A DNA stretch of 64,000 nt from a virus. The notes under the pieces are model-generated. The model did no database searches. It was not told the origin of the DNA and worked only from the letters and a program-made list of their open reading frames with translations. The first letter of the stretch is position 1. Each line of letters begins with the position of its first letter. Below are positions 1 to 25,700 of this stretch, piece by piece. The stretch lies in the IMG/VR virus record IMGVR_UViG_3300023180_006024. The stretch is one strand, 5' to 3'. A program made the translations under genes and the position numbers.

Positions 1-64
1 CTTTGAAACCCATATCAATGCTTGGAATAAGTTCTTTGAATAAGTCTAGTTCTTTGTTTGCCAC
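1..64 (-). CDS. Partial CDS (N-terminus MANKELDLFKELIPSIDMGFK...), runs off the left edge; function unknown
   Basis: GTG at 64-62 overlaps the end of kdsB; frame is open to position 1; not in the ORF track. Confidence 0.5.
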   Translation of the reverse strand, partial: MANKELDLFKELIPSIDMGFK

Positions 65-711
65 TTTTCTAAATCCTCTGGCGTGTTAATTTCAATACCG
101 TCAAACTCAACTTCTACTACGCCAATCTTTTGTCCGTTTTGTATCCAACGTAGTTGTTCTAGTTTTTCAATATCTTCCTCTGCGTACTTGGTGCTAGTAG
201 TATATACAATCTTTGCTTCTCTGTTATAGCCATACACACCCAAGTGATGATCACCGTATGTGAGACTTGCACGTAAGAACCAATGCGCTCTACCTCTGCT
301 GTGTATCATTTTAACACTGTTTGGATCATTTCGCAAGTTAAAATCCATTGGTGTATATGCAGTTGCTACGTCACTAAACTGTAATGCACCTTCTACAGCA
401 CGTATAATATCTTCTGTGATGTCTGGCATATCGCCTTGTACATTTATATATCTATCATATTGTAACACTTCGTCAATAACTTGCATACAGCGTTCTGTGC
501 CATTTTCTGCCTCACGTGTCATGAGACATCTATTGGCACCCATATAGTTGTAAATGTCTTGATGATCAGTTAGCACATAAGTATCAAGGCCTGTAGCAGC
601 ACACTTGTTGTAAACGTGTTCCACCAATGGCACACCTTTTAGTATTGTCATCATCTTACCAGGAAAACGTGTGCTTGCATATCGTGCAGGTATTAGTATT
701 GCCGTTGTCAT
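46..711 (-). CDS. kdsB: CMP-Kdo synthetase (3-deoxy-manno-octulosonate cytidylyltransferase)
   Basis: IPARYASTRFPGK, NGTER, INVQGD, HLGVYGY, EKLEQLR and INTPEDL motifs of KdsB. Confidence 0.93.
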   Translation of the reverse strand: MTTAILIPARYASTRFPGKMMTILKGVPLVEHVYNKCAATGLDTYVLTDHQDIYNYMGANRCLMTREAENGTERCMQVIDEVLQYDRYINVQGDMPDITEDIIRAVEGALQFSDVATAYTPMDFNLRNDPNSVKMIHSRGRAHWFLRASLTYGDHHLGVYGYNREAKIVYTTSTKYAEEDIEKLEQLRWIQNGQKIGVVEVEFDGIEINTPEDLEKWQTKN

Positions 712-722
712 TTGTTGCCTTT

Positions 723-1373
723 CTATAATCTACCAAATGCCCATTTTCTTTCTTCGCACCACCAACAGTTATCACAATGAGATTCAAATGTTGTTGTTGG
801 TGTAGTACAACTTCTTGTTTTATCAAATAAATCTTCTATGCCTAGAATACGGTATGCGGTTGCAACATCACGTTTATCATGATTTTTCATAGGTGAAAAA
901 TGTTTACCATTTATTACGTGTGAATGTTTTTTGCTCCTATCGTCATCTAATTTGTCGTATTTTTTTGCAAGTTTGTTAAAACTATGATCTTGAGGTTTTG
1001 CAGTTATTGCTGTTATAAATCCTTCAATACCTTCTTGGTAATGTCTACGTTTTTGTTTTTTCATAAAATCAAGTTTTTCAAAACCTGTTCCTGAAAAGTT
1101 ATGTACTAAGTGTTTTCCTAACTTTATCGGATATCTTGCTATTGTATACTGTATTATATTTTTTGAAAATATTTCTTGAAAAGGTGCCTCAGATTCTAAT
1201 ATAGTGAATGGAAAGATTGTTTGATTAATACTATTTTCAAAAATATATTTTGCTGTATAATAAAACAATAACGCAGAATCTGCACCACCACTTATACTAA
1301 ATGCCAAGTTTTTTTTATTTCTTGGATAGTGTTCATTATAAATATCATCTAAAAATAGTACACCTGGTATCAA
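723..1373 (-). CDS. QueC-like PP-loop ATP pyrophosphatase with Zn-binding C-terminus
   Basis: SISGGADS PP-loop; TRSC...HCDNCWWCEER cysteine cluster. Confidence 0.75.
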   Translation of the reverse strand: MIPGVLFLDDIYNEHYPRNKKNLAFSISGGADSALLFYYTAKYIFENSINQTIFPFTILESEAPFQEIFSKNIIQYTIARYPIKLGKHLVHNFSGTGFEKLDFMKKQKRRHYQEGIEGFITAITAKPQDHSFNKLAKKYDKLDDDRSKKHSHVINGKHFSPMKNHDKRDVATAYRILGIEDLFDKTRSCTTPTTTFESHCDNCWWCEERKWAFGRL

Positions 1374-2167
1374 CGAAAACTCCGTACAGTTTGATTGATG
1401 TGATATAGTTGACGCACTGTTTCTGCAAAGTCTTCCAAGCGTAGCATATTAGGCCCATCACTTGGTGCATTATCTGGATCAGGATGTACTTCTAAGAAGA
1501 AGTTATCAACACCCATGCCAGCGGCAGCATTAGCAAGAGCTGGAACATAAGCCCTATTACCACCACTGCTGTCACCTTGGCCTCCTGGCTTCTGGACTGA
1601 GTGTGTGACGTCAAATACCACAGGAACAGGAAAGTTGTCACGCATATACTGGATGCCAGTAAAATCAGTGACCAAAGTATTATATCCAAAACTAGTACCT
1701 CTTTCTGTTATCCAAACTTCTTTTGCACCATAGTGTGCTGTTTTACTTAGTATTCCTTTGACATCCCAAGGTGCTAGGAACTGTCCTTTTTTAACATTTA
1801 TAATACAGCCACTATCACAAGCTGCTTTGATTAGATCAGTTTGTCTGCACAAAAACGCAGGTATTTGCAGCACATCAACACTGCTGGTCATTCTATTCCA
1901 GTCTTTGATTTGATACACTTGTGACACATCATGCACATCAGTTAGTGTTTTTATTTCTAAACTTTTTTTGATTATATCAAAATGTTTTAGTGTATCTTCT
2001 AAACCAATGCCACGTTTGCCTGTTATGCTTGTGCGATTGGCTTTGTCAAAACTTGCTTTAAAGATATATTCAATATCAAATAAATCACATACACGTTTGC
2101 ATTCTTTAGCAATATCAAAACTATGTGATAAACTTTCGTGCTGACACGGTCCGGCAATAATTCTCAT
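1370..2167 (-). CDS. kdsA: Kdo-8-phosphate synthase
   Basis: IAGPC, FKASFDKANRTS, QIPAFLCRQTDL, KKGQFLAP, ERGTSFGY, FDVTHSVQKPGG, SDGPN. Confidence 0.96.
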   Translation of the reverse strand: MRIIAGPCQHESLSHSFDIAKECKRVCDLFDIEYIFKASFDKANRTSITGKRGIGLEDTLKHFDIIKKSLEIKTLTDVHDVSQVYQIKDWNRMTSSVDVLQIPAFLCRQTDLIKAACDSGCIINVKKGQFLAPWDVKGILSKTAHYGAKEVWITERGTSFGYNTLVTDFTGIQYMRDNFPVPVVFDVTHSVQKPGGQGDSSGGNRAYVPALANAAAGMGVDNFFLEVHPDPDNAPSDGPNMLRLEDFAETVRQLYHINQTVRSFR

Positions 2168-2168
2168 G

Positions 2169-2447
2169 TTAGTCTCCGTCTCTTATAATATAATAGAGAT
2201 CCAGTGTTTTGTCAAGTTGTTTCCGCAGTGTAGGATGTGTATCTGCCAATGCAAATAGTTCTCGCCAACTGTCGTATCCTAAATATCCTTGTGCTTTTGC
2301 TACGCCCTCTGCATCTCCACCTATGATCCATCTTCCTGGATAAATGCTTTTTTTAGGCTCATCTCTAAACCGTGCATAAACTACACCTTGAGCTCTCTCA
2401 TATATAAGAGCTTCGCCTGCTAGGTCTTCATTTTTTGGTCTAAGCAT
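2169..2447 (-). CDS. Hypothetical protein (about 92 aa)
   Basis: ATG at 2447 overlaps the end of the upstream gene and is more plausible than 2504. Confidence 0.65.
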   Translation of the reverse strand: MLRPKNEDLAGEALIYERAQGVVYARFRDEPKKSIYPGRWIIGGDAEGVAKAQGYLGYDSWRELFALADTHPTLRKQLDKTLDLYYIIRDGD

Positions 2448-3234
2448 CACGCATTCCGTTAAACACTGTTTTTGTAAACTGTTGATTATCGTTATCAATA
2501 TCACCGATTAAGTTGTATGGTAAATCCAAGTTTTTCAACAGTGTGTTAAAAGCCTTTACATCTTTGGGCAAACACATGCCACTGTATCCACGCAACTGTT
2601 TATTAACATCTAAATACAAATCGTTAGTCTTACCTGTTGTTACATATGCATCTTTTATTTTACTGTAATCACATTCAAACTGCTCTGCAACTTCGTAAAA
2701 AATATTTGCAAAAACAATACGCAATGCAGCATACGTGTTGTTATAATATTTAAGTATTTCAGCTTCTGTAGGTGATAGTTGTTTTGTATTTTTTGGCAAG
2801 TGTCCATGTGCTTCAACAATCTTTTTGTATACATACGGATCGTTTGTGCCCACAGCCAATAGTTCGTGATTGTTAATAAAGTCGTCGGCTGCACAGCGTT
2901 CACGTAAAAACTCTGGAGCAAAACAGATACGCAAATCTGCATATCTTGCAATCATAGATTCTGTAAATCCAACACTAACTGTGCTGCGAATGCAAACAAT
3001 TCCTTTATAATCAAGACTGCTTAAATCGTCAACTACTTGTTCTACAATTTCTGTGTCACAATCATTTTCTAGATTTGGTGTTGGTACACAAACAAAAACT
3101 ATTTCTGTATCTAATACATCTTTGATTTCTGTATCAAACTTAATATCGTGCGTGATAACTTGATGTTGTAGTAACGTAAAACCAGCACTGTTTGCACTGC
3201 CCACAACACCCATTCCTATGATTCCTAGTTTCAT
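2440..3234 (-). CDS. UDP-glucose/GDP-mannose dehydrogenase family protein (lacks C-terminal domain)
   Basis: GMGVVG Rossmann motif, VCVPTP, RSTV, PEFLRE, GYSGMCLPKD catalytic Cys. Confidence 0.9.
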   Translation of the reverse strand: MKLGIIGMGVVGSANSAGFTLLQHQVITHDIKFDTEIKDVLDTEIVFVCVPTPNLENDCDTEIVEQVVDDLSSLDYKGIVCIRSTVSVGFTESMIARYADLRICFAPEFLRERCAADDFINNHELLAVGTNDPYVYKKIVEAHGHLPKNTKQLSPTEAEILKYYNNTYAALRIVFANIFYEVAEQFECDYSKIKDAYVTTGKTNDLYLDVNKQLRGYSGMCLPKDVKAFNTLLKNLDLPYNLIGDIDNDNQQFTKTVFNGMRDA

Positions 3235-4094
3235 AATAAACTTTCCACTGTTTTCTTTAATCCTTCTTCCAAAGGCGTATAATCTGTAAATCCTGTTAGT
3301 GTTTGAACAAGAGTAGTATCAGGACATCTACGAGTAGCACTACCTTTAAGTCCAGGCAAGATTTCTAATCTATCTGGGTTAATGCCCATGTAACCCATTA
3401 TCATTTTTGCAACTACTGAAATACTTATTTCATTGTCGTTACCGACATTTACGGTTTTGTTACTGACATTATTTACAAGCATGTCTGTCATAGTAACAGC
3501 ATCATTTACATAACAAAAACTGCGTGTGTCATTGCCGTTGATATAGTACAATCCGTTTTTGCATCTTTCAATAAACTCGTTTACAAAATGATCAGTTTGT
3601 CCTGGACCGTACACATTAAAGTAACGAATAATCAAATAGTCAAGTCCACTGTTTGCAACTAGATTCTCTCCTAGTGCTTTTGGAATACTGTAACTCCAAC
3701 GAGGATTGGTAATATCGTTGTACATAATAGGCACTGCTTCATCTGTAGGCACATGATAGTATCCGTTGTCAATAGTGCTGTTGAATATTTCACAAGTACT
3801 AGCAAACACAAACTTTGTGTTGGTATTTCTGTAGCGTTCAATAAGATTTACAGTGGGCAATGTGTTGTTGATTAACACATCTGTAGGATGATCGTAAAAC
3901 AACCGTGTGCCATTAGTTGCAGCTAGATGCACTATTACATCAGTATCGGGCATGAGTTTTGTTGTATTTGAATCAGCTAAGTCTTCGCCTCTAATCTTTT
4001 TATCATATGGAACAACATGTCTTTGCTGTTCTTGCAAAAACTTATAGTAATGACTGCCTATAAAACCATGCGATCCTGTAAGTAACATTTTCAT
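3231..4094 (-). CDS. NAD-dependent epimerase/dehydratase (extended SDR)
   Basis: TGSHGFIG, HLAA, YSIPK (YxxxK), RYFNVYGPG, TRSFCYVND. Confidence 0.9.
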   Translation of the reverse strand: MKMLLTGSHGFIGSHYYKFLQEQQRHVVPYDKKIRGEDLADSNTTKLMPDTDVIVHLAATNGTRLFYDHPTDVLINNTLPTVNLIERYRNTNTKFVFASTCEIFNSTIDNGYYHVPTDEAVPIMYNDITNPRWSYSIPKALGENLVANSGLDYLIIRYFNVYGPGQTDHFVNEFIERCKNGLYYINGNDTRSFCYVNDAVTMTDMLVNNVSNKTVNVGNDNEISISVVAKMIMGYMGINPDRLEILPGLKGSATRRCPDTTLVQTLTGFTDYTPLEEGLKKTVESLL

Positions 4095-4834
4095 TTTCTA
4101 TTGTACCATTTCTTTTTTTCAGGGCCTTTGTCGTGTGTAAAATAGTAGTTAAGTGGACAATGATTTAGCGGAGTGTGAGTATCTACATTTTTGTATTTCA
4201 TGCTAGACAGATTGAAAACATATTTTTCAAAATGACTTGCTGCTAACATACACACCTGTCCATCATACCATCTTTGTATTTGTTTTGGCTTACTATTCAT
4301 TGTATAATACATTTCGTATTTGTCAACAAAGTTGTTGTATTCCGGATGCTTTTTGTTGAATACTACATAGCCACTTTCTGCACTATAGCCAGTATCACCT
4401 AAATAACTGTGATCAAATAATCCAACAAGTTTTTCTTTTTTCAAAGTATTGTCAATGATGCTGCCATCAAACTTGTTATGAAATATTATGTCACTGTCTA
4501 TCCAAATCAACCTATCTGCGATAATATGTTTCAGTGCATATAAAAAAGCAAAACCTTTTTTAGCAAACTTTTGTTCTTTACTGTTGTTGGTTTTAGTGCA
4601 AAAGTTTTGCCAATCGGGTTTACAAATATAGTTCCAATCATAAACTTTTATTCTGCTATCAAAGTTTGATTCAACATTTTCTGCAATAACACAAAGTTCA
4701 AAACTTGAATCAGCATATTGATAAAAAGTATCCATCATTCGTTTACCACATAAATCATAATAATCTTGATTCATTGTGGTAACGAATGTGTACTTGCGTT
4801 TCTTGGTGCCTAGTGTTTTATACTTCCGTGCCAA
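4091..4834 (-). CDS. GT-A glycosyltransferase
   Basis: FVTT, WIDSD (DxD), ESG, WYD; paralogous to 9746..10567. Confidence 0.75.
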   Translation of the reverse strand: MARKYKTLGTKKRKYTFVTTMNQDYYDLCGKRMMDTFYQYADSSFELCVIAENVESNFDSRIKVYDWNYICKPDWQNFCTKTNNSKEQKFAKKGFAFLYALKHIIADRLIWIDSDIIFHNKFDGSIIDNTLKKEKLVGLFDHSYLGDTGYSAESGYVVFNKKHPEYNNFVDKYEMYYTMNSKPKQIQRWYDGQVCMLAASHFEKYVFNLSSMKYKNVDTHTPLNHCPLNYYFTHDKGPEKKKWYNRK

Positions 4835-5162
4835 CCGATCGTCTTACAATATCGTTATGATTAAACTCTGCCCAGTATAGTTCAAACGCTACACCATCTT
4901 CAAGTCCTTCAAACTGATGAATAACACCTGGCTTGACTTGTGTAAAATCGCCTGGACCTAAAATAGTTTCATCAACTAAATCATAATCTTTCTGCCAAAC
5001 ACGCACAAGCATTTTACCCGACTCTACAAAGAAGCCATTCCATTTGAACCTATGTTCGTGTTCGCTACATTTATAACCTGCTTTATATTCAATACGATGA
5101 AACTCTAGTACACCGTTAGCGTGGATAAGTTCAGTCTGTCCCCAAATCTTTCCTGCTTTCAT
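4818..5162 (-). CDS. Cupin-domain protein (sugar isomerase-like)
   Basis: CSEHEH...F-VESG and PGVIHQF cupin motifs. Confidence 0.8.
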   Translation of the reverse strand: MKAGKIWGQTELIHANGVLEFHRIEYKAGYKCSEHEHRFKWNGFFVESGKMLVRVWQKDYDLVDETILGPGDFTQVKPGVIHQFEGLEDGVAFELYWAEFNHNDIVRRSVGTEV

Positions 5163-5731
5163 TATTCTTCTCCTTCAAAAAAATCAGCAAACAATCTTAA
5201 GCCTGTTTCCCAACTAATAGGCTTATTACCTATTTGTGGTTTAAAACATATTGTCCATCTACCTGGAGCATCTTCTGGATTGTATGTATCGTGCCAAACA
5301 CCAGTGTTTACTAGTGTAGGTTTATTAGTATTTGCCTCTCCAATTTTTACACAATCTTCAATATTTGCGTACTCAACTAAACCATCATACATACGCTGAT
5401 CGTCTGAAATATGAGGCTGTTCTTTAAAACTTTTAGTTGCATCATACCATCTAATAACACCACCGTCAACTCCGTAGCTAATGTTGATTTTACATAATCT
5501 ATCACCGTCGTGATGAATAGGAATACTTTGACCTGGCGATGTATAAAATGCTTCAACCTCGTCTAATCCAGCACCGCACATTGCGACAAACTCCTCCATT
5601 TGTTCATCGAAATATCCATACTTTTCTGTGATATTTTCTTCATTAAAAGGATGTGAATACGTTACTTCTAGTAGTGCATCAGGTCGTTTTATTTCAAACG
5701 GTAATTTTAAATATCTGTATAGGTTATTCAT
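5162..5731 (-). CDS. Double-stranded beta-helix protein, possible 2OG-Fe(II) oxygenase
   Basis: IHHDG...WHDTYN...RWTICF resembles the HxD...H...R pattern. Confidence 0.5.
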   Translation of the reverse strand: MNNLYRYLKLPFEIKRPDALLEVTYSHPFNEENITEKYGYFDEQMEEFVAMCGAGLDEVEAFYTSPGQSIPIHHDGDRLCKINISYGVDGGVIRWYDATKSFKEQPHISDDQRMYDGLVEYANIEDCVKIGEANTNKPTLVNTGVWHDTYNPEDAPGRWTICFKPQIGNKPISWETGLRLFADFFEGEE

Positions 5732-6234
5732 AGTAGCTTTCCAAAATCAATTATTTCGCTTTGTCTATTTACATCTTTCACAAAAAATGCACACAAACTA
5801 TTTTCTTTTTCTTCTATAGGAATACTTAGTAAATGTCCATTTCGCATTTTAGGAAAAAACCATTTTACATCGTTGTAAAAGTTTGTTATTTCAACTGTGC
5901 CAAACTTAGGATGGGTACTAGTTAAGGGATTAAATAAAAACGCTTCAAATCCTCTTTCGTTTAAACTAGTTAAAGGTAAAACTTCTAAATCACTACCTGC
6001 TTGACTACATCCAACAGCTAAACACCAATCTAACGGCATTGTTATTTCATTACCGTTTATTTCTAAAACTACAGCAGGCGAGTTAAAGGACTCTAAAAAG
6101 ATTAAAGGATTAAAAAAGAAATCTGGTTCTTTAGGATTACTGTTATCTAATATAGAAAATCTTATTTCGTCGTCTATTGTTTCGGGTATTTTATTCAAAG
6201 AAAACGATGTGTTTTCAAGTGTTAATATTCTCAT
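5728..6234 (-). CDS. Hypothetical beta-rich protein directly downstream of uvsW
   Basis: Abuts the uvsW stop; beta-strand-rich composition. Confidence 0.65.
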   Translation of the reverse strand: MRILTLENTSFSLNKIPETIDDEIRFSILDNSNPKEPDFFFNPLIFLESFNSPAVVLEINGNEITMPLDWCLAVGCSQAGSDLEVLPLTSLNERGFEAFLFNPLTSTHPKFGTVEITNFYNDVKWFFPKMRNGHLLSIPIEEKENSLCAFFVKDVNRQSEIIDFGKLL

Positions 6235-7698
6235 TTATTTCCAATCCACTTTTTCTATAGTGAATGGGTACTGCGCCTCTTTGTAAAACTTTTTACGTTG
6301 AGTAAGGTGCCGCTTCGCAAACTTACAAGTGCTTGTAAGATCCCATATTTGCACGAAGTCTTTGTCCTTTGCCTTTCTAACGCCTCTACCTATAGATTGA
6401 ATAACTCTAACAAAACTTTTTCCAGGTTCAATAAGTACAAGGTTAAAAATACGAGGGATATTAATACCAACAGCAGCGACACCATAAGTGGCAATAACCA
6501 CTTGATTATCTGCCGTGTTGATTTCGTCATACGCATCTTTTCTATCCTTTAGTTTTACATCGCCTTTTACGAATGTTGATCCTGGTATAAGTTCTTGTAG
6601 CATCTCGCCTGCACTAATCCTATCTACAAGTATTAGAGTATTGCCTGATTGTTTTACACTGTTTAATAGTTTGCCTATATATTCGATTCTTGCTTGATTT
6701 GTTGTTAAATATTTTAATTCTTCTTGATAGTTTGTATGTGCTACTGTGTCAATAAGTTGCACAATATTAACATGACATGCTGAAAGCACTCCTTTGTCTT
6801 GTAGTTCTTTTGCAGTAATCTCGCCAATGACTGGACCTAAACTTGCGTGTATACTTTCAAACTCAAACTTTTCTTTAGGTACAGTGCCTGTTAGTCCCCA
6901 ACGTATCGGAGCATTACGCAAGTTACGTGTTAACAAGTTTTTAAGAACTTCTGCTTTTGCTTGGTGTACTTCGTCCACAATAACTGTGCTTACACCTTCT
7001 AAAAACTCTGCAAGACTTAAAACTGCTTCGCCATCCTTGTGTCTTTTGTCTAAAATGTTTAAACTTTGCCATGTACAAATAGTATGTGTTTTGTTTAACA
7101 TCTTTCTATCGCCAAAATACACACCTACATCTAGTCCACAGTTAATATAGTCTTCTTCAGTTTGTTCAACTAGACTTTTGTTAGGAACAATAACAAGACT
7201 ACGACCGTACTTTTCACTCATGTGTGACAGTGTAGCAGTTGTAATAGTTTTACCTGCACCTGTTGCAATCTGTTGCAGGCTTTGTGGATTGTTTGCAAAG
7301 TTGTTGATTGCTTCGACTTGATAGTCACGCAGAATGATTTCTTCACCTTCTGCAGGATGTCCTTTAGGCCAGCATACACCTTGGTCAGCCCAATAGCGTT
7401 CTGTTACTGGTGCAAAGCTCAAGTCGATTGGATGACGTCTGTCTTCAATATCAACTATTTGAACATTGTTTTTAGCAAGTACTTCAGTAACAATATCCAA
7501 GTGATTAACATAGCCAGTACCGCCAATACCAAAAAAAGCAACTTTGCCGTCCCACCTGCCAAGTTTATACTGTGGCATATATCGTGCGTATGGCACATCA
7601 AACTTGAGAGCATTTGATAACTTTCGCCGTACATCTACATCTAATCCTTCTAGTTTGATGTTTACTTCATCTTCTATGATAAGTTTACATGTTGCCAT
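6235..7698 (-). CDS. uvsW: UvsW-like SF2 DNA helicase
   Basis: LRDYQ, ATGAGKT, VDEVH, GLTGT, GINIPRI, QSIGRGVR. Confidence 0.92.
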   Translation of the reverse strand: MATCKLIIEDEVNIKLEGLDVDVRRKLSNALKFDVPYARYMPQYKLGRWDGKVAFFGIGGTGYVNHLDIVTEVLAKNNVQIVDIEDRRHPIDLSFAPVTERYWADQGVCWPKGHPAEGEEIILRDYQVEAINNFANNPQSLQQIATGAGKTITTATLSHMSEKYGRSLVIVPNKSLVEQTEEDYINCGLDVGVYFGDRKMLNKTHTICTWQSLNILDKRHKDGEAVLSLAEFLEGVSTVIVDEVHQAKAEVLKNLLTRNLRNAPIRWGLTGTVPKEKFEFESIHASLGPVIGEITAKELQDKGVLSACHVNIVQLIDTVAHTNYQEELKYLTTNQARIEYIGKLLNSVKQSGNTLILVDRISAGEMLQELIPGSTFVKGDVKLKDRKDAYDEINTADNQVVIATYGVAAVGINIPRIFNLVLIEPGKSFVRVIQSIGRGVRKAKDKDFVQIWDLTSTCKFAKRHLTQRKKFYKEAQYPFTIEKVDWK

Positions 7699-8864
7699 CT
7701 AGCATATCTTTCAGTTAGTGGAATCTCTTCGTCATAATATATAAATAGATCACTATTTACTATATACTTTTTTACATGTTTAGTTGTTGGTATACTACTC
7801 AAACTTAACACACACATTGGCATCCACTTTGTTCTCAATAATAACTTTGGTAGTTTATTCTTTTTAATATACACTATTTCAGTGGTGTTGTCAACCCAGT
7901 TGTTTAATCTATTGTCTTTTACAAAGGTATTAATATTTTCAGAATCGTCTTTGTTATCAGTTCTAAACAAAACACTTTGTTTTTCATCACTTATAAAGTA
8001 TTTAAATGCATTATATACATTATATACTTGATTGTATTCTTCGTTATCGTCTATTAAAACTAGTATAGGAAATCTATTAAGATGTAATATAGATTCTGCT
8101 AGATTTTGAATCGTATACTGACTTGGTTTTACTAGACATTTAATATCTTCTCTTGATGCAATAACAGCAGGCAATGATGAACTAATATTATACTCTACAA
8201 AGTCTAATCCGTATCTTCTTTTCCTATCTAGTAAATGTAATCCTGTGTACTCTTTTCCAAGTTCTTTTTCGATCAAACTTTTACTATCGTCTTTGATATT
8301 TGAAAAAAGTTGATTATTATAGCAGGTTTTGTACTCAAATTCGTTTGACAGTACATAACAGATTTGGTTGTAATAATCTAATAGTTCTTGATCTATTTCA
8401 AACGATGTGTCTTTGAACAGTTTTATAACTTGAAAAATCATATCTTCATTTAGTCTATAAAAATGCTCATGCGATCCTTTTCTATGCACATATTCTTTAT
8501 GCTTGAACTGTATGCTGTTTATCTTCATTATATCTTTTTTGCTAAAAGGAAATCTTACTTTAATCCATTTCCAGTCAGATTTTGAAGATTCGTATACCAT
8601 ATTAGAATATACATCTTCTGTATCTACTATTTTAATATATTTAGAACGATCAATAGTACGCAAAGGTTGTTTGGATAAAATATCAGTAGGCATTTCTGGA
8701 AACACACTAGACAGAATGGTTTTGCACAAGTTGTATTGCCTATCTGTAAGTGCTGTTCCTTTTGCACATTGGCGTTCTATGCTTTCTAATATTTGCTTGT
8801 TTTTATCTTCAACACCAATGTCTCTTACATAGTGAGTGAGATATTGTTCTATATATTCAAACAT
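7674..8864 (-). CDS. Hypothetical protein upstream of uvsW
   Basis: 396-aa ORF overlapping both neighbours; no motif recognised. Confidence 0.7.
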   Translation of the reverse strand: MFEYIEQYLTHYVRDIGVEDKNKQILESIERQCAKGTALTDRQYNLCKTILSSVFPEMPTDILSKQPLRTIDRSKYIKIVDTEDVYSNMVYESSKSDWKWIKVRFPFSKKDIMKINSIQFKHKEYVHRKGSHEHFYRLNEDMIFQVIKLFKDTSFEIDQELLDYYNQICYVLSNEFEYKTCYNNQLFSNIKDDSKSLIEKELGKEYTGLHLLDRKRRYGLDFVEYNISSSLPAVIASREDIKCLVKPSQYTIQNLAESILHLNRFPILVLIDDNEEYNQVYNVYNAFKYFISDEKQSVLFRTDNKDDSENINTFVKDNRLNNWVDNTTEIVYIKKNKLPKLLLRTKWMPMCVLSLSSIPTTKHVKKYIVNSDLFIYYDEEIPLTERYARWQHVNLS

Positions 8865-9711
8865 TTATTTGTCCTAAAAGTCTATCTAAAGGTAATCCTG
8901 CTGATATTTCTTCAACCGTATACTCTGTCCAAGCATAATCATTTAACCATTGTTGTCTATCAGGATAAGGAATATTTTGTAACTGTCTTACATTATTCAT
9001 AGCAACTGGATATGCAAGACTGCTTGGTCCTACAAGAGCAGGAACTCCATTTATTACGCTATGTATACCAGGGTTACTGCTATAACTTACAGTAGCGTGT
9101 ATTCTTTCAAAGTTCAAATCGAAATCATCATATGTATTGTCAATATGTCTAGGTTCTTGTCTGATAACATTTTTATATTGATGTTCTATTGCTTCTAATC
9201 TGCAACGAGGGTGCGGACGAAATATAATAGGCAAATCAGAAACAGTTTGGAGTGCCCATATTGTATCCATTACCCATTTGCTCATTCGAGGCATGTCTCT
9301 CCACTGAAGACTCTTTTCGTGTTGTCCGCAGATTAGTAAGTATTCGCCTTGTTTACGCCAGGGTCTTAAAAATAACCCCTGACTTTCAGCTCTACTATTA
9401 TCCATACCAGTAGGACCGAAATAAGCATCACGATTAATTCCATTTAATCCTACCTTCCAAGTTGTGCCACGTTTTATGCCACCTACTTCTAAAACAATCA
9501 CAGGCTTATCGTGTTTTTGACATGCATCCCATACTTCTTTGTTTCTTAACATACGTCCGTGAAATAACACACTCCATATTACATGTACATCAGCATCTTC
9601 TATTCCACCTTTAATAGATGTAAATCCTTTGTTTAAAAGACTTTTTTCAAATGCATCAAATATAGGCTTGCTATTTAAAGCACCGTATTCTCTCCACAAT
9701 CTAAACTTCAT
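8857..9711 (-). CDS. KpsC/KpsS-like (capsule-synthesis family) GT-B glycosyltransferase
   Basis: LICGQ, FRPHP, YSSNPGIHSVINGVP resemble the Q...HP...S.G.EAL..G.P motifs of KpsC/KpsS. Confidence 0.6.
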   Translation of the reverse strand: MKFRLWREYGALNSKPIFDAFEKSLLNKGFTSIKGGIEDADVHVIWSVLFHGRMLRNKEVWDACQKHDKPVIVLEVGGIKRGTTWKVGLNGINRDAYFGPTGMDNSRAESQGLFLRPWRKQGEYLLICGQHEKSLQWRDMPRMSKWVMDTIWALQTVSDLPIIFRPHPRCRLEAIEHQYKNVIRQEPRHIDNTYDDFDLNFERIHATVSYSSNPGIHSVINGVPALVGPSSLAYPVAMNNVRQLQNIPYPDRQQWLNDYAWTEYTVEEISAGLPLDRLLGQINV

Positions 9712-9714
9712 GAG

Positions 9715-9720
9715 TAAATA
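9715..9720 (+). promoter_or_regulatory. Late-type promoter TAAATA for the + strand GT gene
   Basis: TAAATA followed by AGGAA SD and ATG 9746. Confidence 0.55.
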
Positions 9721-9746
9721 ATAACATATTTTAAAAGGAACGTCAA
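9718..9746 (-). promoter_or_regulatory. Sigma70-type promoter TTGACG-N17-TATTAT, 6 nt before ATG 9711 (leaderless)
   Basis: -35 at 9746-9741, -10 at 9723-9718, extended TGn. Confidence 0.6.
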
Positions 9747-10567
9747 TGTCAATTACAGTAGTATCAACATTTCATAAACCGGTTTTAGATTTATATGGAC
9801 AAAGATTTGTTGACAGTTTTAGCCAAAACATAGATAAAAATATTAAACTACTGTTGTATGCGGAAGATTGTGTTCCTGGGAGTAATGATTCTCGTATTAC
9901 CATATTAGACCAAAAAACTAGTTTACCAAAACTTTTAGCATTTAAACAGCGTTGGAAAGATGTGCCAAAAGCAAACGGCAAATGTCCTCCAGAAATCAAA
10001 GCTCGTCGTCCAAGAGATTGGCACAAAGAGTTTAAATGGGATGCTATAAGATTTGCTAATAAAGTATATGCAGTATTTGATGCTGCCGAACGCTGTGATA
10101 CAGATTGGATTGTGTGGATGGATGCAGATACATTTGTACACTCAGCTTGGTCATATGAAAACTTTAAATATTTCTTACCTGAAAAAACTTGGCTTGCTTA
10201 TATGGGCAGGGGTAAAAAATGGCCAGAATGCGGTTTCTATGGTATCAACTTAAAAACAAAAGTTGGAAAAGAGTTTTTAAAAGAGTTTGAACATGTATAC
10301 GAACATGCTGAATATGGAATATTCAGAATGGAAGAATGGCATGACAGTTATGTTTTTGATGAAGTTTTAAAAAAGATTAAAAACAAATATCCAAATGAAC
10401 TGATTAATAATATAAGTGGAAACTTGATAAACGGCGAAGGACACCCTATCATTAATAGTGATTTAGGAAAATACATTGATCACTTAAAAGGCGATAGAAA
10501 AGAAATAGGCAAGAGTAATAAACCAAAAGATCTTATTGTAAAACGCAAAGAAGCCTATTGGCAATAG
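9746..10567 (+). CDS. GT-A glycosyltransferase
   Basis: VVSTF, RFANKV, WMDAD (DxD), ECGF, WHDS, HLKG; only + strand gene in the glycan cluster. Confidence 0.8.
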   Translation: MSITVVSTFHKPVLDLYGQRFVDSFSQNIDKNIKLLLYAEDCVPGSNDSRITILDQKTSLPKLLAFKQRWKDVPKANGKCPPEIKARRPRDWHKEFKWDAIRFANKVYAVFDAAERCDTDWIVWMDADTFVHSAWSYENFKYFLPEKTWLAYMGRGKKWPECGFYGINLKTKVGKEFLKEFEHVYEHAEYGIFRMEEWHDSYVFDEVLKKIKNKYPNELINNISGNLINGEGHPIINSDLGKYIDHLKGDRKEIGKSNKPKDLIVKRKEAYWQ

Positions 10568-11484
10568 TTTCTCATATGTTTCCAGCAAGAGCCGTTTGCA
10601 AGTTCCTCGAAGTTCCAATGGAACATACTAATACGTTGTAACCAACGTTCTCTATCATACAAGTTTGGATTTTCAATCAATCTAAAATCAGTATTACTTA
10701 CTTCTCTATTTTGGCTGCTTTCAGGATCTGTTACAAACGAATGATAACCTTGTATAATAGGTCCAACTGCTGCGCTGCTATTATGATTTACAACTGCCCA
10801 TGCTTTTGAAAGTTCTTCTTCTAAAGATTTTCCTTGTAAACTTATTTTGACATTAGGTAGATTTTTAAGTCTAGTTTTGTTTACGTTTAGATATATTGGT
10901 GCTTTTTTATCTCCAGGATGTGGTCTAACTAAAATAGGTCTATCGCTGTGTTGTCTAATCTTGCTTATTGTATCTAGTGCCCATTGTTCGACGTCATATC
11001 CTTTCATGCTCCAGCCGCCTTGACGCTGAAGCATTAATATAATCCATTTACCTTGTTGTTTTGTATCTTCTATTTTTATGCCAAGATGCTTGCTTATTTG
11101 TCTCCAACGTTTTGGATTAATATTATCATCGCAGTACAATCCTGTTTGTGGAAATACACCATTAAAACTATACCTTAAATAACCAAAAGGATTTGTTTTA
11201 TCTTTATAGTTAAACAAACTTGCATCTGCACAAGCAACAAATTTTTGTTTTTGTATTTGTGTATCTATTACAGTTTTACGTAATCTTAAATGAGGAGAGC
11301 TAATGTTGTCGTATACCCATCCTTGTATAACTCCTACATCGCAATCTTCTATAGTATTTCCTGTGTGCAGTATGCCTTGATCTCCTGCGGCATTTACTCC
11401 TTGTGCAAACTTAATAAGCAGCTCTGTTTTTTGTTTATTACTATTTCGAGCTGGAACACTATTATAATAACTAACTACTTTCAT
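10555..11484 (-). CDS. KpsC/KpsS-like GT-B glycosyltransferase
   Basis: LMLQR, VRPHPG, NHNSSAAV...IQG; paralogous to 8857..9711. Confidence 0.6.
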   Translation of the reverse strand: MKVVSYYNSVPARNSNKQKTELLIKFAQGVNAAGDQGILHTGNTIEDCDVGVIQGWVYDNISSPHLRLRKTVIDTQIQKQKFVACADASLFNYKDKTNPFGYLRYSFNGVFPQTGLYCDDNINPKRWRQISKHLGIKIEDTKQQGKWIILMLQRQGGWSMKGYDVEQWALDTISKIRQHSDRPILVRPHPGDKKAPIYLNVNKTRLKNLPNVKISLQGKSLEEELSKAWAVVNHNSSAAVGPIIQGYHSFVTDPESSQNREVSNTDFRLIENPNLYDRERWLQRISMFHWNFEELANGSCWKHMRNYCQ

Positions 11485-12283
11485 TTACTATATTCCATGC
11501 ATAACCACTTACCATTTCCGCTGCGGTAAACTGACAATAGGAAAGATGTTTTGCAAATGCTAGTACTTCTCCTTTTGTAGGAATATGTAAACTTCTAACA
11601 TCGGATATATGTGTGTTACATAAAACTGTTGCTGCATTTGGTGCTAATGCAATAGCAGGTTTGCTCATTAATAATGCCTCTGTTGCAGCAATACTATTAA
11701 ATGTTACTAAACAAACAGCATCTTCTAATGCTTGCCATATTGTATCATTATTAACTCTGTCTTCTCTACTAGGTTTTAGCCTTACCTTAATGGGTATATT
11801 TGTATAAGTTTTAATCTGGTCGAGTGTTTCTTCCATCCATTGATTTAAATCTCTACCATAAAACTTCATTACCTTTTCACTAGGAGGACAAACCAATATA
11901 TAACTACCCCCTGTTGGTTTTGTATAACTCCAATTTAGTTTACGTAATCTGTCCATTGATCTATCTTTTATTGGACCTAGATTTTGTAATGCATTTTTTG
12001 TAATGCGATGATATTCTTTTTTCTTGCCAGGTTGAATATAACCTGTATCTATCGCATAAAATGTTCTGCCTATTGACATACATTGTTTTAGAGCTTTTTG
12101 ACTAGTGCCTCCTAAGCCTCTTATAACTAAGTCGTTATCGGTATTTTCTTCGGTTTTCCAATCACTAATGATTCCGCCAGCACCTAAAATAAAATCTCTA
12201 CAATACGGATCGTAAATGTCGCCTTTTTTATCGTAGTTAAAATCACCTGGATCAGGTATAATGCTTGCAACTTTTACACCCAT
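11471..12283 (-). CDS. KpsC/KpsS-like GT-B protein; also the C-terminal part of a putative frameshift fusion
   Basis: IDTGY, TFNSIAATEALLMSKP; own SD GAGGT, but frame is open upstream to the A9 run at 12432-12440. Confidence 0.6.
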   Translation of the reverse strand: MGVKVASIIPDPGDFNYDKKGDIYDPYCRDFILGAGGIISDWKTEENTDNDLVIRGLGGTSQKALKQCMSIGRTFYAIDTGYIQPGKKKEYHRITKNALQNLGPIKDRSMDRLRKLNWSYTKPTGGSYILVCPPSEKVMKFYGRDLNQWMEETLDQIKTYTNIPIKVRLKPSREDRVNNDTIWQALEDAVCLVTFNSIAATEALLMSKPAIALAPNAATVLCNTHISDVRSLHIPTKGEVLAFAKHLSYCQFTAAEMVSGYAWNIVNESS

Positions 12284-12420
12284 GTTTTTTACCTCTATTT
12301 TATCTTCACTTGTAAACCATTTTTCTTGTGGATCAATCTTATCATATAAACTTGCATTTAGATTTGCTTTTATAACATCAGAGTAAGTAGTATTATTAAT
12401 ATACCTAGGACGTTCTTTCT

Positions 12421-13161
12421 CTAGTCTGACCTTTTTTTTTGATCTTCTAGTTCCTTGGTGAGATACAAGCGTTCTGCTTTGTAATACTCATTTGCATATT
12501 CGCAGTCTTGATAATCTTCAAACCAAGGACCACCTTCTGTGTAATGTAGTGCTTTTGGTTTACCATCGTCTGGCTCTTTGTACCAGCCAACTAGCCAGTT
12601 CCACTCGTGACTGATTGCTCCAATCTTGTCATCGTCTAACCAACTAAATCTATGAAACCATGCACCAGTTTTGTGTTCATCATTTACACACTCGGGTGTA
12701 AGAATATTATTGTCAGGATGGCCTGCGTTAAACAAAACTGCACTACTCCAGTTTTTTCTTGGATAAATGTGCTGATCTTTTCCATCCATCTTTGTGCCAG
12801 CTTTTGGAGTGTAATCGTGTTGCGCACACATGACTGCAAACTTGTCATTTGTTTTGGCAAACAACTTTGCAACATCATCTAGGAAAATAAAATCACAATC
12901 GATAAACAAAGCCCATCCCTCAAAGTTTGCAAGTCTAGGAACTAAGAATCTTGTAAAAGTAAATTCTGTGCTTGCAAGTGTATCTACTGCACGAGTATAC
13001 ATTCCATCTCTGCGTAAGTTATGTTGTTTTAATGGTATTACTTTTACAGGCACAGATGCATGTTTCAAAATACTTGCTTTACATGCTTGAAATGCAATAT
13101 CTTCTCTACTGTCCCATCCAACATATATTCTAAGTGGTTCAATCTCTTCGCTCAATATCAT
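12421..13161 (-). CDS. GT-A (GT8-like) glycosyltransferase
   Basis: YVGWDSRE, STEFTFTRF, FIDCD (DxD), YPRKNWSS, WNWLVG, HYTEGGPW. Confidence 0.85.
   Translation of the reverse strand: MILSEEIEPLRIYVGWDSREDIAFQACKASILKHASVPVKVIPLKQHNLRRDGMYTRAVDTLASTEFTFTRFLVPRLANFEGWALFIDCDFIFLDDVAKLFAKTNDKFAVMCAQHDYTPKAGTKMDGKDQHIYPRKNWSSAVLFNAGHPDNNILTPECVNDEHKTGAWFHRFSWLDDDKIGAISHEWNWLVGWYKEPDDGKPKALHYTEGGPWFEDYQDCEYANEYYKAERLYLTKELEDQKKRSD
12431..12441 (-). other. Putative -1 frameshift / transcriptional slippage site C-A9-G
   Basis: CAA AAA AAA AGG; the -1 frame reads 50 sense codons into ATG 12283. Confidence 0.6.
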
Positions 13162-13903
13162 TCTCCGTTAGTTCTTTTCCCATCCAAACTTCAACTACTT
13201 TAGCATCTTTGTTGTCAATGTTAACTGCCTTGTGCCACCAGCCAACAGGAATATCAATACTGTCTCCTGGTGTTAGTAGTGTGCTAGTTCTTCTGCCTAT
13301 TTTATCTTCAAGGAACATATTTATAACACCGTCAACTACATGCCAATGTTCACTGCGTTTGAAGTGGCGCTGATCGCTTAGTGCCTTTCCTTGATAAAAT
13401 GTAAGTTCTTTAACCTGCCATTCGCCGTTGCGATCTAATATTTTATATTCGCCCCAAGCACGTTTGGTTACAGGCTTTTCCCAGTTTTTTAATATCCAAC
13501 TCGAACTGTTCTTTTTATCTTCTCCGCCAACACCAAATACAAAATCTACGTCTTTGTGATCGCCATATATTTTTTGTTCAGGTATTTCTCCGTCAACTCT
13601 ATCTCCACCGTTAGCGACAATCAACTTACCCCTGTTTGTAGCCAGCAAATAGCCAATGGCTTGTGTTGTACCTCCGGTATCATCGTCTTTAACAAGTATA
13701 ACCTCGTCTACCATATCTAGATGCTTAACGATATTTGCTCTTTCAACAAGTGGCATAAATGGCTTGCCTTTTTTATTAACAAGCCATTCGTCACTGTTGA
13801 GTCCAACAACCAGTTTATCTCCTAGTTGCTTTGCTGCTTTGAAATATTCAATATGTCCGCTATGTAGTGGATCAAATCCGCCTGTAACTAATACTGTGGT
13901 CAT
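13139..13903 (-). CDS. Cytidylyltransferase (HIGH) fused to a mannose-6-phosphate isomerase-type cupin
   Basis: GGFDPLHSGH, ANGGDR, KKNSSS; then RAWG, LSDQRHFKRSEHW, WH; start re-called at ATG 13903. Confidence 0.85.
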   Translation of the reverse strand: MTTVLVTGGFDPLHSGHIEYFKAAKQLGDKLVVGLNSDEWLVNKKGKPFMPLVERANIVKHLDMVDEVILVKDDDTGGTTQAIGYLLATNRGKLIVANGGDRVDGEIPEQKIYGDHKDVDFVFGVGGEDKKNSSSWILKNWEKPVTKRAWGEYKILDRNGEWQVKELTFYQGKALSDQRHFKRSEHWHVVDGVINMFLEDKIGRRTSTLLTPGDSIDIPVGWWHKAVNIDNKDAKVVEVWMGKELTENDIERRD

Positions 13904-13907
13904 ACGG

Positions 13908-13913
13908 TATTTA
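13908..13913 (-). promoter_or_regulatory. Late-type promoter TAAATA, 4 nt before ATG
   Basis: TAAATA-CCGT-ATG, no SD. Confidence 0.6.
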
Positions 13914-14537
13914 CTACTTCCAACCGAATATGTAATCTTTTCTGACATTACCTAAGGACACTGCACCTAGTTCTCGCAAATAGTCTGCTGCTTGATATTT
14001 TGATTCAGGATGCTGTTCTACTATAACAATAGGTTTGTATTTTAGTATTGTATCTTTACCGCCTTTGACTACTTCTAGTTCGTGACCTTCACAGTCAATT
14101 TTTAACATTCCAAACTTAGGTAAATCTAAACTATCTAATGTCTTAATATCAATAGTGCCTTGTCCTACTTTGCTTACAAAACTACCGCCTGTGTTTTCAC
14201 TATCATAGGTCATAGTAACTTTGCTATTGGTAGATCCAAGTGCAAACTTATTAATCTCTACAGGTAAATCTTTACAGTTCATTTCTAAACAACTATAAAC
14301 TTGTTCAAGTGGTTCAAATGCAATAACTCGATTAAACTTTTCTACTAAATGTTTAGACCATAATCCAACGTTTGCACCCACATCAACTGCAATATCAAAG
14401 TCTTTTACATATTTGTATGCTTCTGCTCTAGTATCGTCTTGGTATTGTGGAGGCCCACCTTTTTTTATTCTTTTTGCTATAAGACGTTCAAAATGCTCAT
14501 CGGTATCGGGCATCCAATATTCAAAAACTTTTTTCAT
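13914..14537 (-). CDS. FkbM-family methyltransferase
   Basis: DVGANVG, AFEP, LKIDCEGHE. Confidence 0.88.
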   Translation of the reverse strand: MKKVFEYWMPDTDEHFERLIAKRIKKGGPPQYQDDTRAEAYKYVKDFDIAVDVGANVGLWSKHLVEKFNRVIAFEPLEQVYSCLEMNCKDLPVEINKFALGSTNSKVTMTYDSENTGGSFVSKVGQGTIDIKTLDSLDLPKFGMLKIDCEGHELEVVKGGKDTILKYKPIVIVEQHPESKYQAADYLRELGAVSLGNVRKDYIFGWK

Positions 14538-15088
14538 GATTTTTCCAATACAACAATATATTTTACAACATGTCTTGGAGGTCCTTTTTTAACTTTGGCA
14601 TATCTTTCAGTTATTTCTTCATGAATAATATTCCATCCATTTAATGATTCTATTTTTTTCTTCCACCATTTAGGATTTTCAATAATTAAATGGGCATTAC
14701 GACCGTCACTTAATGCTTTCTTTGCAGGATGACATGCTATTAAATGATATTGATATCTTGTAGATCTAGCACACAAATCATTAAGTGTTTCATCAATCAA
14801 ATCAGGCTCAACATGTTCTAAAACATCACTGCTATAAGTTAACTCAACTTCCTTAGGTAAAGGATTAGGAAATGTAGCAGGATCGAATGTATGTAAATCT
14901 ATTTCAGGATATGTTTGAGATATAGTAGCACTGGTATGTCCTTTACCTGCGCCAAAATCTAAAAAACTTTTTATATTATTTTCTTTAATAATCTTATGAA
15001 CTATTTCGGGAATATTTCTATTTAACCCAAATGTTTTTTTATTGTGTAGAGTTTTTAACTCTTCTAAATACTCTTTTGAATATGACAT
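14534..15088 (-). CDS. Class I SAM-dependent methyltransferase
   Basis: LDFGAGKG, SDVLEHVEP. Confidence 0.85.
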   Translation of the reverse strand: MSYSKEYLEELKTLHNKKTFGLNRNIPEIVHKIIKENNIKSFLDFGAGKGHTSATISQTYPEIDLHTFDPATFPNPLPKEVELTYSSDVLEHVEPDLIDETLNDLCARSTRYQYHLIACHPAKKALSDGRNAHLIIENPKWWKKKIESLNGWNIIHEEITERYAKVKKGPPRHVVKYIVVLEKS

Positions 15089-15096
15089 TTAACTTC

Positions 15097-15552
15097 CTAA
15101 AGTGTTGCATCTTCCATGCCTGCTACTCTTAACTTTACTATATTAGTTATCTGCCATTGCTTTTGATCTAGAGCTTTTAGAACACCTAACCATTTATTAC
15201 GCATTAATGCAAACTCGTTTATAATTTTTTCATAGTCGCAAACATCTTTTTCTCCATCGACATATTTTTCTACATCGCGACTGCTTAATGCACGTTGATA
15301 GTTTTCAAGATATTTTTTAAAATATGAGCTGCGTAGTTTTCGCAGCTCAATATTCATATATTCAAGGATTGCTTCTATCTCTTGAAGCTGATTAAAACGA
15401 TGTTCAACAATACCTGGCATTTCAGATGCTGCTTTTTCAACATTGCCTTTTAACTTTACCTCAGTTTTTGCTGTTGCTAGTTCAGTTTCAAAATGTTGTA
15501 TTGCTGCAGGTATTAAACTAATATCTCTGCTAACACGGCTATACCAACCCAT
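15097..15552 (-). CDS. uvsY: UvsY recombination mediator
   Basis: Helical 151 aa, RDVEKYVDGE...QWQITNIVKLR; located two genes downstream of uvsX. Confidence 0.8.
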   Translation of the reverse strand: MGWYSRVSRDISLIPAAIQHFETELATAKTEVKLKGNVEKAASEMPGIVEHRFNQLQEIEAILEYMNIELRKLRSSYFKKYLENYQRALSSRDVEKYVDGEKDVCDYEKIINEFALMRNKWLGVLKALDQKQWQITNIVKLRVAGMEDATL

Positions 15553-15553
15553 A

Positions 15554-15775
15554 TTAATCCCAGTCGTCTTCGTCGTAATCGTCGTCTACATCTAAGTAAT
15601 ATTGAATAGCATTATCTAAATCTTTATCATTACCTAGCGATTCTTTTAGTACGATATCATCAACTCCATAGTCTGCAAGTAGATCAACAAACTTTTCTGC
15701 TGTTATTTCTACTTGTTTTTTATCTAAGTTTGGCTTAAACAAGTTCCAGATATCAACAATCTGTTCTTCATTCAT
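15554..15775 (-). CDS. Small acidic hypothetical protein
   Basis: GAGGAG SD; lies between uvsX and uvsY. Confidence 0.7.
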   Translation of the reverse strand: MNEEQIVDIWNLFKPNLDKKQVEITAEKFVDLLADYGVDDIVLKESLGNDKDLDNAIQYYLDVDDDYDEDDWD

Positions 15776-25663: not shown

Positions 25664-25700
25664 AATGTATTTATCTTATTAATAAAGTACCCATAAAATA

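Follow-up and report, generated by a model that had tools for sequence, protein, structure and literature searches.

The DNA analyzed here is a stretch of 64,000 nucleotides (hereafter the window, meaning this whole stretch) from the 87.7-kb IMG/VR virus record IMGVR_UViG_3300023180_006024, and positions 46 to 15,088 hold a block of genes predicted to make, activate and transfer the sugar acid 3-deoxy-D-manno-octulosonate (Kdo), interleaved with the recombination genes uvsW and uvsY. CheckV estimates the completeness of the record at 24%, which implies a full genome of roughly 350 kb. Its UvsW and UvsX proteins share 52-68% identity with their counterparts in jumbo myoviruses, namely Atu_ph07, Phosso, Vibrio phage 2.275.O, CBB and GAP32; the phage, a jumbo myovirus that has not been cultured, is a relative of the Rak2, Atu_ph07 and CBB phages, and the phage collection holds no close DNA relative of the window. 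Relatives are encoded on 306 IMG/VR contigs, and 80 loci were compared. The gene list of the first-pass annotation, a reading of the sequence that had proposed a candidate virion glycosylation system, proved essentially right: nearly every listed gene is found in its place, and glycan genes are indeed wedged between uvsX/uvsY and uvsW. The Kdo genes and three glycosyltransferases of the GT-B fold lie as follows (CMP, cytidine monophosphate; QxxxD, catalytic motif of known Kdo transferases):

46-711, minus strand: KdsB-like CMP-Kdo synthetase, 221 amino acids, matching Pfam PF02348 (CTP_transf_3) at 9e-24
1370-2167, minus strand: KdsA, Kdo-8-phosphate synthase, 265 amino acids, with 350.6 bits to NF003543 (cut-off 242) and 335 bits to TIGR01362 (cut-off 314)
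8857-9711, minus strand: GT-B1, of a KpsC-like fold family, hhalign 99.6% to the GT-B2 family, with RPHP, and QH(D/E)KS at the QxxxD site
10555-11484, minus strand: GT-B2, the paralogue that was modelled, with RPHP and NSS motifs, and QR(N/Q)GG at the QxxxD site
11471-12283, minus strand (with a linker to 12420): GT-B3, hhalign 99.1%, with RLKP and NSxxxxE

Because KdsA scores above curated equivalog cut-offs, its identity is firm. The KdsB-like assignment is well supported: all 13 PDB sequence matches are KdsB proteins (E down to 1e-29) and the protein shares 32% identity with KpsU of E. coli, with a best NCBIfam KdsB model score (160.8 bits) under the cut-off of 193. Of the two genes named in the first-pass annotation, kdsA stands as it is and kdsB as a KdsB-like gene. 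Its remark that kdsC and kdsD are missing from the window also holds: searches of the 87.7-kb record and of five related fragments, all of them incomplete genomes, found neither KdsC nor KdsD. Two IMG/VR contigs, L054 (155 kb) and L047 (101 kb), carry the KdsB-like gene and all GT-B genes, with no KdsA on these fragments.

The three GT-B paralogues are mutually homologous (BLASTP 5e-11 and 1e-4; hhalign 99.6% and 99.1%), and their resemblance to known enzymes emerged only from structure comparison and profile-profile alignment: their sequences and family profiles returned nothing usable from Pfam, NCBIfam, PHROGs or PDB sequences. When the AlphaFold model of GT-B2 (predicted local distance difference test, pLDDT, 88.8; predicted template modelling score, pTM, 0.84) was searched with Foldseek, WbbB and KpsC came out on top (E 1.5e-7), and the best 15 rows of a second structure aligner (VIA) were all beta-Kdo transferases, namely KpsC, WbbB and KrkA. 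With KpsC/KpsS (GT107), WbbB (GT99) and KrkA (GT140) the phage protein shares the same modified GT-B fold over its full length (Z 13.7-11.4; root-mean-square deviation 3.9-5.2 A over 235-255 residues), whereas generic GT-B enzymes reached Z values of at most 10.2 with much worse deviations. In an independent structure search over 48,161 representatives, ranks 1 to 4 were the four beta-Kdo transferase clusters. The structural check against GT107 and GT99 that had been suggested for these proteins therefore places GT-B2 best on KpsC, WbbB and KrkA.

Relatives of GT-B2 fall into about 2,000 metagenomic sequence clusters; the 120 best listed carry no Pfam domain, and of the few with a source name, not one is named. 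Comparison of 40 orthologues shows dozens of invariant polar residues in GT-B2, an argument for the GT-Bs being active enzymes. GT-B3 and a neighboring GT8-like domain form a single protein of 560-600 amino acids in many relatives, with the GT8 domain N-terminal, and the 137-nucleotide gap between them in the window (12284-12430, minus strand) is homologous to the linker of that fused protein; the reading frame changes at an A9 run, through a homopolymer error or else through a shift that is real or programmed. Apparent 400-nucleotide insertions in GT-B2 matches turned out to be joined matches to the neighboring paralogue and no introns.

A fourth KpsC-like GT-B paralogue lies a few kb away in some relatives (L031, L038, L044 and L081). 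More distant GT-B homologues occur in Pelagibacter phage Mosig (L088, Mosig_00187), among two methyltransferases, two glycosyltransferases and a sulfotransferase, and in podovirus MW202713 (L089), where the gene adjoins a TibC-like gene; both phages are without a CMP-sugar synthetase of their own.

Enzymes of GT99, GT107 and GT140 share two elements: QxxxD, with an Asp that acts as covalent nucleophile, and (K/R)xHP, which binds CMP (PMC12887879). We located these motifs in KpsC and KpsS of E. coli; for profile-profile alignment with hhalign, a KpsS/KpsC profile was built. RPHP of GT-B2 aligns with KHHP of KpsS, and NSS with NST; RPHP is invariant in the GT-B1 and GT-B2 families, such that (K/R)xHP is kept in two of the three paralogues. 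The (K/R)xHP and Ser-Ser CMP-binding motifs stand at the same spacing as in KpsC/KpsS, WbbB and KrkA, and the Gln of QxxxD is retained in two phage paralogues. In the same alignment (probability 68%), the invariant G157 of GT-B2 falls on the KpsS nucleophile D237. The distance from the nucleophile site to the HP motif is 32-33 residues, as against 34-38 in KpsC/KpsS. Alignments to single KpsC or KpsS sequences were weak, and GT-B1 and GT-B3 scored low even with the KpsS/KpsC profile; it is from fold and gene context that we infer the donor and stereochemistry of these enzymes. A cluster in the Atlas in which 18% of members match Pfam Capsule_synth (PF05159) is a lead only.

The timing of the block is read from late-promoter boxes, two of which lie in front of glycan genes:

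9713-9720, plus strand: late-promoter box AGTAAATA, in the divergent intergenic region 9712-9745
13908-13915, minus strand: late-promoter box AGTAAATA, 4 nucleotides before the ATG at 13903

Late TAAATA promoters had been claimed at 9715 and 13908; these boxes exist, and their position is conserved in relatives. For CBB and GAP32, which are related phages, ATAAATA has been proposed as the late promoter (PMC5259590), and in the window boxes of the GATAAATA type precede the genes for tail sheath, tail tube, adaptor, a small-terminase-like protein and a virion protein. The window shows no enrichment of exact TATAAATA (4 found, 8.8 expected), and sigma-70-like promoters and terminator-like sites occur at chance level in 1-17.5 kb; the TAAATA boxes of the window are taken as meaningful only through comparison with relatives, in which TAAATA stands upstream of individual genes as follows:

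GT-B1: 69% of relatives, at about -25
Nucleotidyltransferase-cupin fusion gene: 66% of 41 relatives, at -11 or -10, often as the canonical TATAAATA
GT-A2, a GT-A-like transferase gene: 44% of relatives, at about -35
GT-A1, its paralogue: 33% (2 of 6) of relatives, scattered
MT2, a methyltransferase gene: 21% of 24 relatives, scattered
The other 16 genes: 0-9% of relatives, at no fixed position

Before the nucleotidyltransferase-cupin gene, a box occupies the same position as in the window in 27 of 41 relatives, many of them with TATAAATA and others with CATAAATA and similar sequences. The start of this gene, judged by comparing starts and lengths with those of relatives, is probably the ATG at 13903 and not 13948, and the 4-nucleotide spacing between box and ATG, shared by those 27, suggests nearly leaderless late mRNAs. 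In the window, a late box lies 4 nucleotides from an ATG both here (AGTAAATAccgtATG; 13901-13915, minus strand) and before the tail-tube gene (GATAAATAcattATG; 25664-25675, minus strand). The divergent gap between GT-B1 and GT-A2 holds, in relatives (L044, L061, L014 and others), a pair of TAAATA boxes in opposite orientation, separated by a few bases, a predicted compact, palindromic two-way late promoter; the minus-strand box of the window in 9712-9745 is degenerate (TAAAATA). The pattern supports two or three late units that would cover the whole kit.

Gene order is constant across the 80 loci. It runs (with variable genes in parentheses) uvsX, small open reading frame (ORF), uvsY, (MT2), FkbM methyltransferase, nucleotidyltransferase-cupin, GT8, GT-B3, GT-B2, GT-A2 and GT-B1, and continues with the gene for a 396-amino-acid protein, uvsW, the gene for a PHROG-11279 protein, cupin, (GT-A1, an epimerase of the short-chain dehydrogenase/reductase (SDR) type, dehydrogenase), small ORF, kdsA and kdsB. 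The uvsX-uvsW region of two cultured relatives, Atu_ph07 and Vibrio phage 2.275.O, contains no glycan genes, and in the latter a single gene lies between uvsY and uvsW. Because it is syntenic in 80 loci and absent from this region in both cultured relatives, the kit is taken as a lineage-specific insertion into the uvsX-uvsY-uvsW backbone that was later fixed.

The remaining features of the block and its frame are:

723-1373, minus strand: PP-loop ATPase-like ORF with a TTG start, a weak QueC C-terminal match (E 2.6e-4) and an SGG motif near the N-terminus
2169-2504, minus strand: small conserved protein, always directly upstream of kdsA
2440-3234, minus strand: nucleotide-sugar dehydrogenase (accessory) with Pfam N-terminal and central domains and no C-terminal UDP-binding domain (UDP, uridine diphosphate)
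3231-4094, minus strand: SDR nucleotide-sugar epimerase/dehydratase (accessory), Pfam Epimerase 3.1e-34
4091-4834, minus strand: GT-A1, GT-A-like (accessory), paralogue of 9746-10567 (BLASTP 2e-9)
4818-5162, minus strand: small cupin, Pfam Cupin_2 3.1e-7, with a weak WbuC cupin match
6235-7698, minus strand: UvsW helicase, Pfam ResIII and Helicase_C, 52-56% identical to that of Atu_ph07 and Phosso
7674-8864, minus strand: conserved 396-amino-acid protein, AlphaFold2 pLDDT 89.9, always directly upstream of uvsW
9746-10567, plus strand: GT-A2, GT-A-like transferase 2, Pfam GT2 E 1.7e-3, DAD motif
12421-13161, minus strand: GT8-like GT-A domain, Pfam GT8 3.8e-5 and 23.8 bits (cut-off 24.3), DCD motif
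13139-13948, minus strand: nucleotidyltransferase (RfaE-II/TagD-like) fused to a cupin of the phosphomannose isomerase type, CTP_transf_like 2.9e-15 and MannoseP_isomer 5.8e-19
13914-14537, minus strand: FkbM-family methyltransferase, TIGR01444 86.7 bits (cut-off 37.7), Pfam 5.3e-14
14534-15088, minus strand: putative second S-adenosylmethionine-dependent methyltransferase (MT2), Pfam methyltransferase matches at E 2e-3 to 9e-3
15097-15552: UvsY, confirmed, framing the block together with UvsX and UvsW
15768-16859: UvsX, confirmed

Most of the sugar-handling functions in the first-pass annotation are borne out by these matches, some of them in part. Pfam confirms the SDR epimerase, as well as a cytidylyltransferase-like domain and a cupin in the form of the fusion, which NCBIfam models also match, and the small cupin, which is strongly conserved (median 85% identity among relatives). 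The UDP-sugar dehydrogenase is present as a nucleotide-sugar dehydrogenase (TIGR03026 6.6e-39, profile positions 54-304 of 413) that is short and lacks the UDP domain; it occurs in only part of the relatives, and the presence and position of the SDR gene likewise vary. The two methyltransferases are an FkbM protein far above its cut-off and the weakly matching MT2, found in 39 of 80 loci. Three GT-A-like proteins are present as described, and their assignment is weakly supported: GT8 falls below the cut-off, the GT2 match of GT-A2 is marginal, GT-A1 has no family match of its own, and the family profiles of the GT8-like protein, GT-A2 and the 396-amino-acid protein found nothing significant in PDB. 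Within the families, D126 and D128 of GT-A2 are invariant, as are D88, C89 and D90 of the GT8-like DCD motif in 21 orthologues.

The small protein at 2169-2504 stays beside kdsA in relatives, even those without the dehydrogenase, and has no family match. The PP-loop ATPase-like ORF between kdsA and kdsB has a homologue in none of the 80 related loci and may be a strain-specific enzyme amidating a sugar acid. The 396-amino-acid protein was modelled as a candidate glycan acceptor or enzyme and yielded only weak matches to helicase or RecA domains (Dna2, E 4.4e-4, template modelling score 0.25); it is probably tied to the recombination backbone. UvsW is a gene of that backbone and lies outside the glycan kit, within the same late unit.

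On balance, we favor reading this block as a lineage-conserved, late-expressed module for glycan assembly whose acceptor would most probably be a protein of the phage particle. Phage KdsA would condense arabinose-5-phosphate of the host with phosphoenolpyruvate to Kdo-8-phosphate, a host phosphatase would release Kdo, and the KdsB-like enzyme would convert it to CMP-Kdo, from which the three soluble GT-Bs of the KpsC/WbbB/KrkA fold would add Kdo, or an ulosonic acid close to it, to the glycan as it grows. Other sugars would be added by the three GT-A-like transferases, one of which is fused to a GT-B in relatives; the nucleotidyltransferase-isomerase fusion would provide a second activated sugar, and FkbM-type methyltransferases would cap or modify the product. 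The acceptor might be the giant Ser/Thr-enriched fibers, for example. A particle protein is favored because of the late timing, the Ser+Thr-rich neighbors (the giant neighboring proteins contain 22-23% Ser+Thr), the fixation of the block in the lineage and its lack of membrane and export genes: none of its 23 proteins has a transmembrane-grade hydrophobic segment, and an initiating transferase, a flippase, an ATP-binding cassette (ABC) exporter and a membrane protein are all missing from the block. As candidate targets, a virion protein ranks as most likely, followed by the host envelope and then DNA.

Several observations weigh against this reading, most of them concerning the GT-Bs. Unlike in KpsC/KpsS, WbbB and KrkA, the nucleophile Asp of QxxxD is absent from all three paralogues, the corresponding column being Gly in GT-B2, Ser in GT-B1 and Val in GT-B3, and GT-B3 in addition has Lys in place of the His of the CMP-binding motif. 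Sequence identity to these enzymes is about 10-13%; no GT-B paralogue matches PF05159 even at E 10, and orthologues of the three show sub-threshold matches in 0 of 40, 0 of 29 and 3 of 27 cases (best E 0.12). The Z values of GT-B2 exceed those for generic GT-B folds by a margin of only about 3. The proteins thus look like KpsC-fold transferases for CMP-ulosonic acids that stand outside the known families, GT107 and GT99 included, and their earlier placement in the KpsC/KpsS family is not upheld; of the KpsC/KpsS-like motifs claimed for them, the CMP-binding HP motif is there in two of three, alongside the matching fold, and the QxxxD Asp is in none. Without it, the GT-Bs cannot use the Asp of the known double-displacement mechanism, such that another nucleophile or an inverting mechanism would be needed, and since GT-B3 also lacks the His, transfer of Kdo is not assured. 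KdsA, for its part, has been lost from a subclade that retains the KdsB-like and GT-B genes, and may therefore merely boost supply. Both glycan-unit boxes, moreover, deviate from the local GATAAATA consensus, and the lack of transmembrane segments is compatible with a lipid acceptor, since KpsC and KpsS are soluble yet act on lipid.

The same missing residues and the missing PF05159 match would be explained if the GT-Bs used another donor or were non-catalytic, with KdsA and KdsB serving as auxiliary metabolic genes that sustain the Kdo supply of the host, and the distant homologues in Mosig and the podovirus do occur without a CMP-sugar synthetase gene. Phages without KdsB would, however, get CMP-Kdo from any Gram-negative host, the HP and SS motifs that bind CMP are kept, along with many polar residues that are invariant across the 40 orthologues, and the KdsB-like gene co-occurs with the GT-Bs even after the loss of KdsA; we therefore regard this explanation as rather improbable. 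Where the glycan goes is a separate matter. The three KpsC-like enzymes could assemble an oligomer of Kdo on a lipid of the host or on an intermediate of lipopolysaccharide or capsule, which host exporters would bring to the surface, where it would alter receptors or shield the cell. In favor of this, lipid-linked capsule or O-antigen acceptors are used by all of the closest folds (KpsC, WbbB and KrkA), E. coli likewise has three such modules (KpsS and the two modules of KpsC), and cyanophage cell-wall gene sets that include kdsA and kdsB have been interpreted in this way (PMC12801897). Such remodelling of the host envelope is nonetheless unlikely, given that late-type promoters put expression shortly before lysis, that the block is without the transferase, transport and membrane genes listed above, and that it forms a fixed, syntenic part of the core region of the lineage and no variable island.

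A DNA acceptor, with Kdo-containing sugars on modified phage bases evading host nucleases, is a rival that the first-pass annotation had not considered; it finds precedent in a phage GT-B (GT94) reported to add a probable Kdo to 5-hydroxymethylcytosine and in DNA glycans of one to three sugars (bioRxiv 10.1101/2023.12.21.572611); the block also sits among recombination genes, and the GT-Bs are basic (isoelectric point 8.4-9.3). The reported DNA transferases, however, resemble T4 beta-glucosyltransferase, which is absent among the best 50 structure matches here, an inconclusive result; no thymidylate-synthase-type hydroxymethylase, C5 DNA methylase or, in a search without a positive control, TET/JBP protein was found in five related fragments (22-44% complete); and FkbM methylases together with six transferases better suit a larger glycan. 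DNA hypermodification, though a real rival, is an improbable function of the block. We retain decoration of a particle protein as the preferred reading, and extend it tentatively, as a possibility, to the idea that a large and widespread clade of uncultured jumbo phages puts a methylated, Kdo-containing glycan on its own particles, and there probably on the giant fibers enriched in Ser/Thr, by means of a new mechanistic class of KpsC-fold transferases working without the Asp nucleophile.

Parts of this system have counterparts elsewhere. As in KrkA and WbbB, one phage module (GT-B3, in relatives) is fused to a second transferase, and the phage matches E. coli in the number of its KpsC-type modules; unlike in all of those systems, the genes are encoded by a phage, are predicted to be expressed late, and lack neighboring genes for the export of capsule or O-antigen. 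Predicted Kdo pathway clusters, in which the use of the sugar is unknown, are also carried by two giant viruses, CroV and Fadolivirus (PMC9614988). As there, a viral Kdo-8-phosphate synthase and a CMP-Kdo synthetase are clustered here with glycosyltransferases, a UDP-glucose dehydrogenase and sugar methyltransferases; unlike in these viruses of eukaryotes, which have the isomerase and phosphatase steps, both steps were not found here and the transferases are KpsC-like. In the tailed phage S-SCSM2R, a cyanomyovirus, kdsA lies next to kdsB amid many genes of the cell-wall type, interpreted as modifying the host surface (PMC12801897). The KdsA of this phage shares 40% identity with that of the window; S-SCSM2R is a single isolate, has no GT-B2 match (phage collection, E 1e-3), and its study includes no promoter or clade-level analysis. 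GT94 is likewise a phage GT-B proposed to use activated Kdo (bioRxiv 10.1101/2023.12.21.572611), but it is T4 beta-glucosyltransferase-like and linked to 5-methylcytosine oxidase or thymidylate-synthase genes, and neither link is seen here.

What is new is the pairing of Kdo genes with three nucleophile-less transferases of the KpsC fold, their conservation across a clade and their late promoters. In bacteria, Kdo is known mainly as part of the Gram-negative envelope, and we know of no earlier demonstration of a Kdo glycoconjugate on a phage particle; a conserved late pathway in phages for making, activating and, as it seems, transferring Kdo would be new. The GT-Bs are of interest to enzymology in that they keep the fold of retaining beta-Kdo transferases and the CMP site and have lost the nucleophile, and the large GT-B family, with its approximately 2,000 clusters, offers a defined set of proteins for testing. 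If the proposed pathway is true, it would amount to a new catalytic solution for ulosonic-acid transfer, and abundant environmental giant phages would build their own acidic glycan, which could affect host recognition, the stability of particles and the recognition of those particles.

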